Shown here one piece after another: positions 9,001 to 12,000 of a DNA stretch of 17,071 bases. The stretch is from a virus (taxonomy: Duplodnaviria; Heunggongvirae; Uroviricota; Caudoviricetes): positions 1 through 17,071 of IMG/VR virus record IMGVR_UViG_2695420569_000026; one strand, 5' to 3'. Within the stretch, counting starts at the first letter, position 1. Each line of letters starts with the position of its first letter. Position numbers: made by a program.

Positions 9001-12000
9001 CGATGCATCCTCTGCTGAAGTATCAGCATTTGCGGCGCTCGCTTCCGCCTTACTGGCTGATATGCCGGCATTCCTCGCGGACGTCTCTGCTTCTCCGGCA
9101 TTCTTCTTCGCCTCCTCTGCGTGACGCGCTGCTTCTTCCACCATCAGTTCAAAACGACGCAGTGCCTCCGGACGGACGTCATCCTCCGACATGGCACCGA
9201 GAAAATCATTCAGCGTCCCCGGTTGAGAATCTTCATACACGGTGATGGTCCCGGCATGTGACGGCGGGAATCCTTCCACCAACAGAATGACGCTGTACTG
9301 ACCGTACTCAACGTCCATGCTGTAACGACCGGCTTCATCCGGATTTTCAGAGGCCACCGTGTTCACCACCACCGTGGCGCTGTTACGTCTGGCTTTCAGT
9401 TGAATGGTGCAGTTCTCTACCGGTTTTCCTGTGCCGTCTTTCAGTACACCTGAAATCTTTACTGCCATATTCACCCCACAAAAAAGCCCGCCTGAACCGG
9501 CGGGCTGTCATAACACTGTGTTACCTGGCTAATCAGAATTTATAACCGACACCCACGATGAAACCGTCAGTGCGCCAGTCGCCACTGCCGGAGCCTTCAT
9601 AAGCAATATCAATGGCCACGGATTCGATCGGGTTAAACTGCACGCCAGCTCCCCACGCCAGAGACGTGTTGCTGTGGCGACCGTCATCACTTCCGGTCAG
9701 CACATCATGCGTTTTCCCCTTGTTGTCAGTTACGCGGAGATAATCCCCGGAGAAAGTCGACACACGGCTGTAAGCCACACCCGCCATCGCATACGCGCTG
9801 AACCATTCATTCACGCGCACAGACGGCCCCGCCATTACGCTGAACCAGCGGTTACGCACGGAATCTTCATGCCAGCGGGTATCGCTGTAACGGGTAATCT
9901 GGCGATTCCTGTCTCCTGCATAGCTGAATGACGTCACCAGCCCCAGCGTGTCCGTGAATTCATAACGGTATTTCACGTTAATCCCGTTAAGATTATCGCT
10001 ACCGGGAGCGTTCGTCCGGGCATGAAGATACCCCGCGCTCAGCGTGGCCTGCTGCTCAGACGCCCATGCAGGCGCACCGGATACGGTCAGATAAATGGCT
10101 GCGGACAAAATGGCGGCATAAAGTTTACGCATAATTACCTCTCGCTTTTCTGCAATAAAAAAGGCGTCATTCCTGACGCCCTTTATTGGGGTTATAAATA
10201 TTTCAACGAATACTGATGCCGGAAGCAGCTTTTTTGGTCACAATCACCGTACAGTCGGTGATATTGCCTGCCCCCTGATTGCCTTTCTGGAAAATCTTAA
10301 ACTCCAGAGTGACGCTACCACCACCACTAGGCATATCAATAACTGCACTGTAACTACCGGGAATGGCCCCTTTAGTTTCTCTGGATGCGATTAATACGCC
10401 GTTTTTGCGAACTTCAAAACCATAACCCGTGTATCGCGTGCCTCCTGGGTTATTTCCGCTCCCCGGATCGTCATACGCTATACCGTTAAAAATAATGGGC
10501 GGAATAATAATCTGGCGGTCAAAGTTATGATCATCGCTGATGGTGACTGTAACCGTACCGTTTGGTGTTTCCGTGTTACCCCACGTACCGACTTTTTTCG
10601 GGAAGGCTTTTGATACAGCTTTAACGAAATCCCCTCTGACCTGGGTCGCCTCCAGCATGCCCTTAATCGTACAGTTCTGGTTAATCGTGACATTGTTGAG
10701 CGCTCCTGAGTTCGCATTCACACTGCCACTGATATCCGCATTTTTCGCCGTCAGTCGCCCGTCTGGTGTCAGGGAAAATGCCGGAGGATTACCGCCGCTG
10801 GTAATGGTGGGAGCCGTCAGATATTTCAGGAACACTTCATTCATGAATATCTGATCGCCCTGACCAACAAACATCGGCTTTGTGTTGCCATTCGCAGGAT
10901 TAATCATCGCAATCCTGTCTGCTGCCAGCAGCACCTGACTCTGCATGCCGTCGGGGGTGTTCTCAATACCGGCACCGATACCCGCAATATAAAGGCGTCC
11001 GTCCTGCATCTGCTGCAGCTTCACTGCCCACATGCTGTTCAGGTTATTATTTGTATCAACCTGAACCTTCTGTATCTGCTGGATCGCTGCACTCTGGTCT
11101 TCCAGTTTCTTATTGACGGTCTGTGTTATTTCATTGCTGACATCCGTTATGGACGTCCTGATTTCAGTCAGGTCAGGCGCAAGCTGACCGTTATCAATCT
11201 GCGTCCACAGCTCCTGAGCCAGATGGGTTTTCCCTATCTCGCCTTTGAAAAAATCCAGATAGCCGGATGCATCATCACTCGGCTGACCAACAGCCTCCAC
11301 GAATGCCGATTTGCCAACGGTGTTCACACTGCGGATATAAAAGTAATAATCATGGCCCGGTTTGATATTGATACTGGCGGCTATCCAGTACAGCCCCGTG
11401 CCAAGGTAGCGGGCTGTGGTTTCAACCTGCCTGATATCGGTAATCCGCGTTTCCGAAAACCAGAACTCAAACTGTACCGTCGGGTCATACACCGCAAGAC
11501 GCGGGACCGCTGTTATCTGAAAATAGCCCGGTGTCAGCTCAATCGTGGCGGGTACCGCAGGTGCATTAATCCTGAACGTGGTGGTGGCCGGTTCCCCCTG
11601 CTGGCCATAACTGTTAATTGCCCTGACTGTCAGGGTGTATTCCCCGAGCGGCAGACCACTGAAACGATGCTCTGTATCCGCAGTGATGGCGGTGGTCACC
11701 AGACGGCTGTCTTCTCCGCTTCCGTTGGTCAGGCGCAGACTGAAGCGCACACCCTTCACCACCCGCGGCGTGTCCCATTTCGCCTGTGCCAGATACTGAT
11801 CAGCTAATCGTGATGCCTGCAGTGGCTTTCTTCATCACCACAACCAGCAAATCGCTGATACTTGCTGTGGGATACCAGTTATTTACCAGCCATGCTGACA
11901 CCGAAAACTCCAGTGTCATGTGACCGTGACCGGCAGGCATATCAATAACGCCACTGTAAATCAGCGTATTATCCAGCGCGGTACGGTTATAAATTTCAGC

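Follow-up and report, generated by a model that had tools for sequence, protein, structure and literature searches.

EHEC and EPEC prophages are mosaic and partly degraded. A natural mosaic of the tail-tip (host-specificity) protein J is provided by P0002 (1158 aa), which is J2-like over aa 396–815 and 990–1158 and J1-like over about aa 816–990, J1 and J2 denoting two of the alleles distinguished below, and in which the J2-J1-J2 blocks are collinear and in frame. The 3′ boundary of an undisturbed J gene is likewise well represented: the J 3′ ends of five finished genomes match positions 11800–12000 of the DNA analysed here at 100% identity, and all five genomes show a stop codon, a 67-nt spacer (…ATTTTATAACCC…) and then lom, and this spacer after the J stop is conserved among the J2-type loci of finished genomes. 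As for joins produced by assembly software, GapFiller adds one overhang base at a time under a majority ratio of 0.7, halts at ambiguous bases and closes gaps where the overlap reaches 10 nt or more (PMC3446322), and SSPACE and GapFiller were described by Page et al. as greedy programs that can create false joins (PMC5320598).

Here we followed up an abrupt join between two J alleles, junction C (11799/11800), in the window, i.e. the whole 17,071-nt stretch of viral DNA that was analysed. Junction C is very probably a false join from the scaffolding or gap closure of a short-read draft and not a real feature, and the J join is most likely of no biological interest.

A prophage arm that ends in strung-together J fragments

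The window is the entire contig CYAW01000085.1 (17,071 bp) of the draft WGS assembly GCA_001286145.1, a contig presumably built from short reads. All its genes lie on the minus strand and constitute the right arm of a lambdoid prophage of LEE-type E. coli: a partial IS2 transposase (33–785) at the window end opposite J, espN (1328–4729), nleL (5320–7668), a tail-fibre gene with collagen-like repeats (8155–9474) located downstream of lom, and lom itself (9533–10132), which encodes an Ail/Lom outer-membrane protein and is the usual downstream neighbour of J. J sequence fills the remaining 6.9 kb from 10203 to the window end, while the J N-terminus and the remaining tail genes are absent from the record. 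Both contig ends fall in repeats, the left one in the partial IS2 transposase (1–785) and the right one in mid-J (17071), so that the draft origin which a misjoin presupposes is found here, in a whole contig ending in IS2 and J.

Two further sequence properties of the arm were recorded outside the J area. The tail-fibre gene encodes long collagen-like G-X-Y repeats, and due to this repeat composition its opposite strand displays long spurious ORFs (7870–8778 and 8424–9245). A 66-nt inverted match (86%) was observed between 959–1023 and 3528–3593, that is, between the AT-rich gap separating espN from the IS2 remnant and the espN interior; a GogB pseudogene fragment is annotated around this area in the finished O145:H28 locus, and the area may be a remnant of another effector gene.

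By comparing the window with itself and with two intact J genes from finished genomes, L001 (J2-type) and L002 (J1-type), the J area was resolved into pieces of at least three J paralogues strung together. Next to lom lies the J1 3′ fragment (10203–11799, minus strand), which covers aa 632–1163 of intact gpJ, has lom downstream and, together with the lom region, is 99.1% identical to gpJ-lom of O157:H7 493/89 (L002 2164–4562). It is preceded by the J2 fragment (11800–14091, minus strand), which begins at aa 396 of a second J allele and includes that allele's stop codon; the annotation gives it as a protein of 758/760 aa, and it is 97.8% identical to gpJ of strain 472 (L001 3001–5289). A 91-nt J piece (14092–14182, plus strand; aa 355–385) follows, attached bluntly at 14091/14092 and oriented opposite to all other J pieces, being a reverse match to L001 5411→5321 with 96.7% identity. 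A chance overlap of 12 nt, ATAACGGCGTGG (14167–14178), merges this inverted piece with the J2′ fragment (14167–15458, minus strand; aa 511–942), a third J allele whose frame breaks at 14167 and which shares 97.06% identity with J2 (35 mismatches, 12450–13740 against 14167–15454). Finally, the J1 middle fragment (15459–17071, minus strand; aa 449–986) runs off the contig end and contains, at 15459–16520, a second copy of 10738–11799 that spans 1062 bp with zero mismatches; either repeat nodes were duplicated by the assembler or two J1-type copies are identical over this stretch. Joins are blunt, with 0 nt of common sequence, at 11799/11800, 14091/14092 and 15458/15459. As side observations on the inverted 91-nt piece, its length is near that of one 100-nt read, and in J coordinates it lies only 32 nt from the end of the neighbouring J2 fragment, which gives it a foldback-like look.

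The join at 11799/11800 and its counterpart in a sister assembly

On the minus strand, 11830→11770 reads gaaagccactgcaggcatcacgattagcTGA|tcagtatctggcacaggcgaaatggg, also given as ...aaagccactgcaggcatcacgattagcTGA|tcagtatctggcacaggcgaaatggg..., and translation placed the stop codon of the J2 frame at 11802–11800. From 11799 on, the sequence is that of another allele, internal to J, entered at about aa 632 in another frame (QYLAQAKW...), so J1-internal sequence abuts the final base of the J2 stop. The join proved blunt, with 0 nt shared, when compared base by base with both parents. The first J1 base, 11799, is a T on the minus strand, and the junction reads CTGA|TCAG (cTGATCAg), a palindrome that contains GATC and overlaps a BclI site. 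Junction C is a deterministic property of the record and not a statistical signal, and chance is not at issue.

As a description of the record, the sequence-only reading proved largely accurate. It had reported the stop of J variant 2 as fused straight onto internal variant 1 sequence, with the variant-1 frame closed at 11832–11834 and left with only an internal GTG as start, and had classed this as a non-homologous join as opposed to an ordinary gene boundary. The stop is indeed fused in this way; two TGA codons (11837–11832) close the J1 frame upstream, and the frame offers no start codon before the GTG at 11762, which opens a 519-aa ORF (10203–11762); there is no homology at the join, the two frames differ, and the J-spacer-lom order of finished genomes is missing. 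The homology of variant 1 does end abruptly, as had been noticed, but its true limit is 11799 instead of about 11797, given that self-comparison and comparison with both parents extend it to that base and that 10738–11799 is 100% identical to 15459–16520.

When a 401-nt query centred on the junction was compared with 5,426 complete E. coli genomes, the junction was contiguous in none of them; each half of the query was 100% identical in many of these genomes, with the alignments breaking exactly at 11799/11800. No phage record spanning the junction was found, and the exact junction 34-mer was absent from GTDB species-representative genomes, IMG/VR and JGI metagenomes. A homologous prophage with the same sequence at a normal gene boundary, which would have spoken against the reported fusion, was not encountered, no other carrier having been found.

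The 519-aa ORF just past the junction led to exactly one other record, CYBE01000123.1 (7,347 bp) of assembly GCA_001286205.1, whose J pieces are 100% identical to those of the window. At junction C, this sister record reads ‘...attagctga N cagtatctgg...’ (flanks: ...atcacgattagctga N cagtatctggcacagg...), with a one-N gap exactly at window position 11799, and this N is the sole mismatch in the 4278 nt of window 14091→9814. In the window the N is replaced by the T, which is J1's base at that position. CYBE01000123.1 carries three single Ns, all at joins between J fragments. Its second N occupies position 14091, the very base at which the inverted piece is bluntly attached in the window, and the J2 piece begins after this N; near the third N, J1 ends at 15584 versus 15459 in the window. 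Moreover, J2′ continues about 350 nt further upstream (past 15458), so that junction A (15458/15459) is absent there, and the 91-nt piece stands in sense orientation, where it continues J2′ naturally in the upstream direction. The program behind this scaffold therefore lacked continuous sequence across junction C. A misjoin would be expected to appear in another assembly as a gap or in another arrangement, and both were found, namely the N at 11799 and the differing extents and orientation of the neighbouring pieces. Identical pieces in differing order with Ns at the seams have the look of scaffolding noise; no such variation would be expected of a fixed structure in the genome. The adjacency of the J2 stop and J1-internal sequence is nevertheless the same in the two assemblies, which may or may not stem from independent isolates or libraries, and this could mean that read pairs truly link the pieces. 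Literature searches for CYAW01, CYBE01 and both GCA accessions gave no matches, and the project ERP001141 (EPEC isolates, 100-bp paired-end Illumina reads, Velvet) is only a lead as to the source.

The position of the break on the J1 side can be accounted for by the paralogues. A 73-nt exact run in J1 (11726–11798, and again 16447–16519) is common with the J2 fragment (13305–13377), after which J1 continues with A and both J2 and J2′ with G. Position 11798, the J1-side end, is the final base of this run, and the assembly graph forks there because J1 and J2 diverge right after it; the end of the 73-nt run is thus a branch point of the assembly (de Bruijn) graph. On the other side, both assemblies have the J2 fragment break off precisely at its stop codon, where one would naturally suspect another paralogue of creating a branch point. 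A branch-point scan of all segment ends in the window and CYBE01000123.1 gave matches dominated by the exact twin copies. The biological breakpoint that the sequence-only reading had implied for this genome is accordingly unsupported, in view of the single-N gap in the sister assembly and the paralogue branch point on the J1 side.

Removal of the inserted sequence, which should restore the gene and its synteny if pieces had been misjoined, was carried out in silico. Deleting 10738–15458 left a single open frame of 715 aa that aligned without gaps to aa 449–1163 of the intact 1163-aa gpJ at 98.7% identity. Likewise, in the closest finished syntenic arm, that of O145:H28 RM12581, lom-stf-nleL-espN is preceded by one intact J of 3,477 bp.

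Origin of the join

A false join at junction C most likely arose as follows. The strain would carry at least three lambdoid prophages whose paralogous J genes have long exact stretches in common, and because of these shared stretches the assembly graph would break where the paralogues diverge, leaving the J genes as separate contigs, i.e. several from J1 and one each from J2 and J2′. A scaffolder may then have chained the fragments in series, probably because read pairs from the paralogous J regions link ambiguously, and a gap closer would have removed the Ns in the window's assembly and not in its sister. At junction C, the N would have become the single base T, a way of filling a one-N gap that is suggested by the two sequences, while at 14167–14178 the pieces would have merged via the 12-nt chance overlap. 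Such a merge fits the rule by which GapFiller closes gaps on overlaps of at least 10 nt, and a base-by-base majority-rule extender would halt at 11798 because the paralogues fork there; the programs behind the misjoin were presumably of the SSPACE/GapFiller type, and it is likely that no read spans junction C. The real locus most likely consists of one intact J1 followed by lom, stf, tfa, nleL and espN, and the J2 and J2′ pieces most likely belong to other prophages of the same genome.

A real junction, produced by lineage-specific illegitimate recombination between two prophages that joined a complete J2 3′ end to a 1.6-kb J1 3′ remnant before lom, is improbable in our judgement. It would account for the same adjacency in two assemblies and for the T that fills the N, and assemblers would then fail to cross cleanly only because both flanks are repeats; the existence of the natural mosaic J protein P0002, together with the mosaicism and decay of EHEC/EPEC prophages, also counts in its support. 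However, a real recombination should leave unique bridging k-mers, through which the J2-side contig would overlap the J1 sequence or merge with it cleanly, whereas the sister assembly shows a bare N with no overlap; one break coincides with the final base of a stop codon and the other with the point where a 73-nt paralogue repeat ends, which is unlikely at random; the neighbouring joins of the contig change from one assembly to the other; and none of the finished genomes or other collections searched contains the junction. Slightly less probable again is that a real junction places a complete J2 end before a promoterless J1 3′ remnant serving as a silent alternative receptor-binding cassette; if so, homologous recombination could swap the silent J1 cassette into the expressed J and change the host range of the phage.

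A chimera formed in vitro, by GATC/BclI-like ligation, amplification or foldback, and then faithfully sequenced is very unlikely, even though the CTGA|TCAG palindrome supplies a GATC at the join and the inverted 91-nt piece lies, foldback-like, 32 nt from its neighbour. The palindrome arises only through the fill, as its central T is an N in the sister, and GATC is lacking at the other joins, on which grounds a restriction-site ligation chimera was rejected; besides, a random chimera would neither recur in a second assembly nor reach consensus depth, and the record is a WGS draft and not a clone. For the 91-nt piece, FoSTeS/MMBIR template switching and amplification foldback were rejected as well, as the piece has the sense orientation in the otherwise 100% identical sister. 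Scarcely credible, finally, is a programmed tail-tip diversification in which tandem silent J cassettes serve host-range switching in the manner of a shufflon, a DGR or a cassette system, to which the tandem partial J copies with different C-terminal receptor-binding parts would conform. Such a system is contradicted by the contig itself: ORF translations and the Pfam matches of all called genes yielded J, Lom, tail-fibre, NleL, EspN and IS2 domains only, with no reverse transcriptase, invertase or dedicated recombinase apart from the IS2 transposase at the contig end. Furthermore, the J copies form direct repeats, not inverted ones, the blunt joins are devoid of recombination sites, the two assemblies, identical in other respects, disagree over the array, which has Ns in one of them, and nothing similar occurs in the 5,426 finished genomes.

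A false join, which we regard as the best account of junction C, also has consequences for sequence collections. The J1-to-J2′ join (15459/15458) is in frame and gives rise to a 985-aa chimeric ORF (14108–17065, minus strand), for which one full-length protein match was obtained, the 974-aa ‘tail protein (partial) of prophage CP-933X’ (CTT75965.1). The cluster of CTT75965.1 is a singleton from one contig among about 15 billion proteins, and this entry is database contamination from an assembly artefact. The 974-aa chimera and the truncated J ‘genes’ of 758 and 519 aa now stand in public protein databases, and any mining of drafts for tail-tip diversity, J copy number or breakpoints would misread the contig as a tandem J array. 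The significance of the locus is one of data hygiene, not of biology: sister assemblies and reads should be consulted before abrupt non-homologous joins in multi-copy prophage genes of short-read drafts are interpreted.

Comparison with natural J loci and with known misjoins

Compared with the normal J-lom boundary, the J2 fragment has the same last 200 nt and TGA as many finished genomes; there, however, the stop leads through the 67-nt spacer to lom, whereas here it passes at once into internal J1. The window also shares with natural mosaic J genes (gpJ) the J1-like and J2-like building blocks with their shared exact stretches, but the natural mosaics switch at homologous positions, remain collinear and in frame, and encode about 1158–1163 aa, while junction C changes frame as it leaps from a stop codon to aa 632, and no homology (0 nt) accompanies the leap. 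A natural mosaic J generated by homologous recombination was rejected as an origin, given the 0 nt of homology and the loss of both collinearity and frame. With misjoins of the SSPACE/GapFiller kind, one difference was noted, namely that the one-N gap appears, from the two sequences at hand, to have been closed by a single base without overlap. In other respects the locus resembles such misjoins: it lies in a draft contig with both ends in repeats, pieces of paralogues are chained, the sister shows a single-N gap, one join runs through an overlap of at least 10 nt, and extension halts where the paralogues differ.
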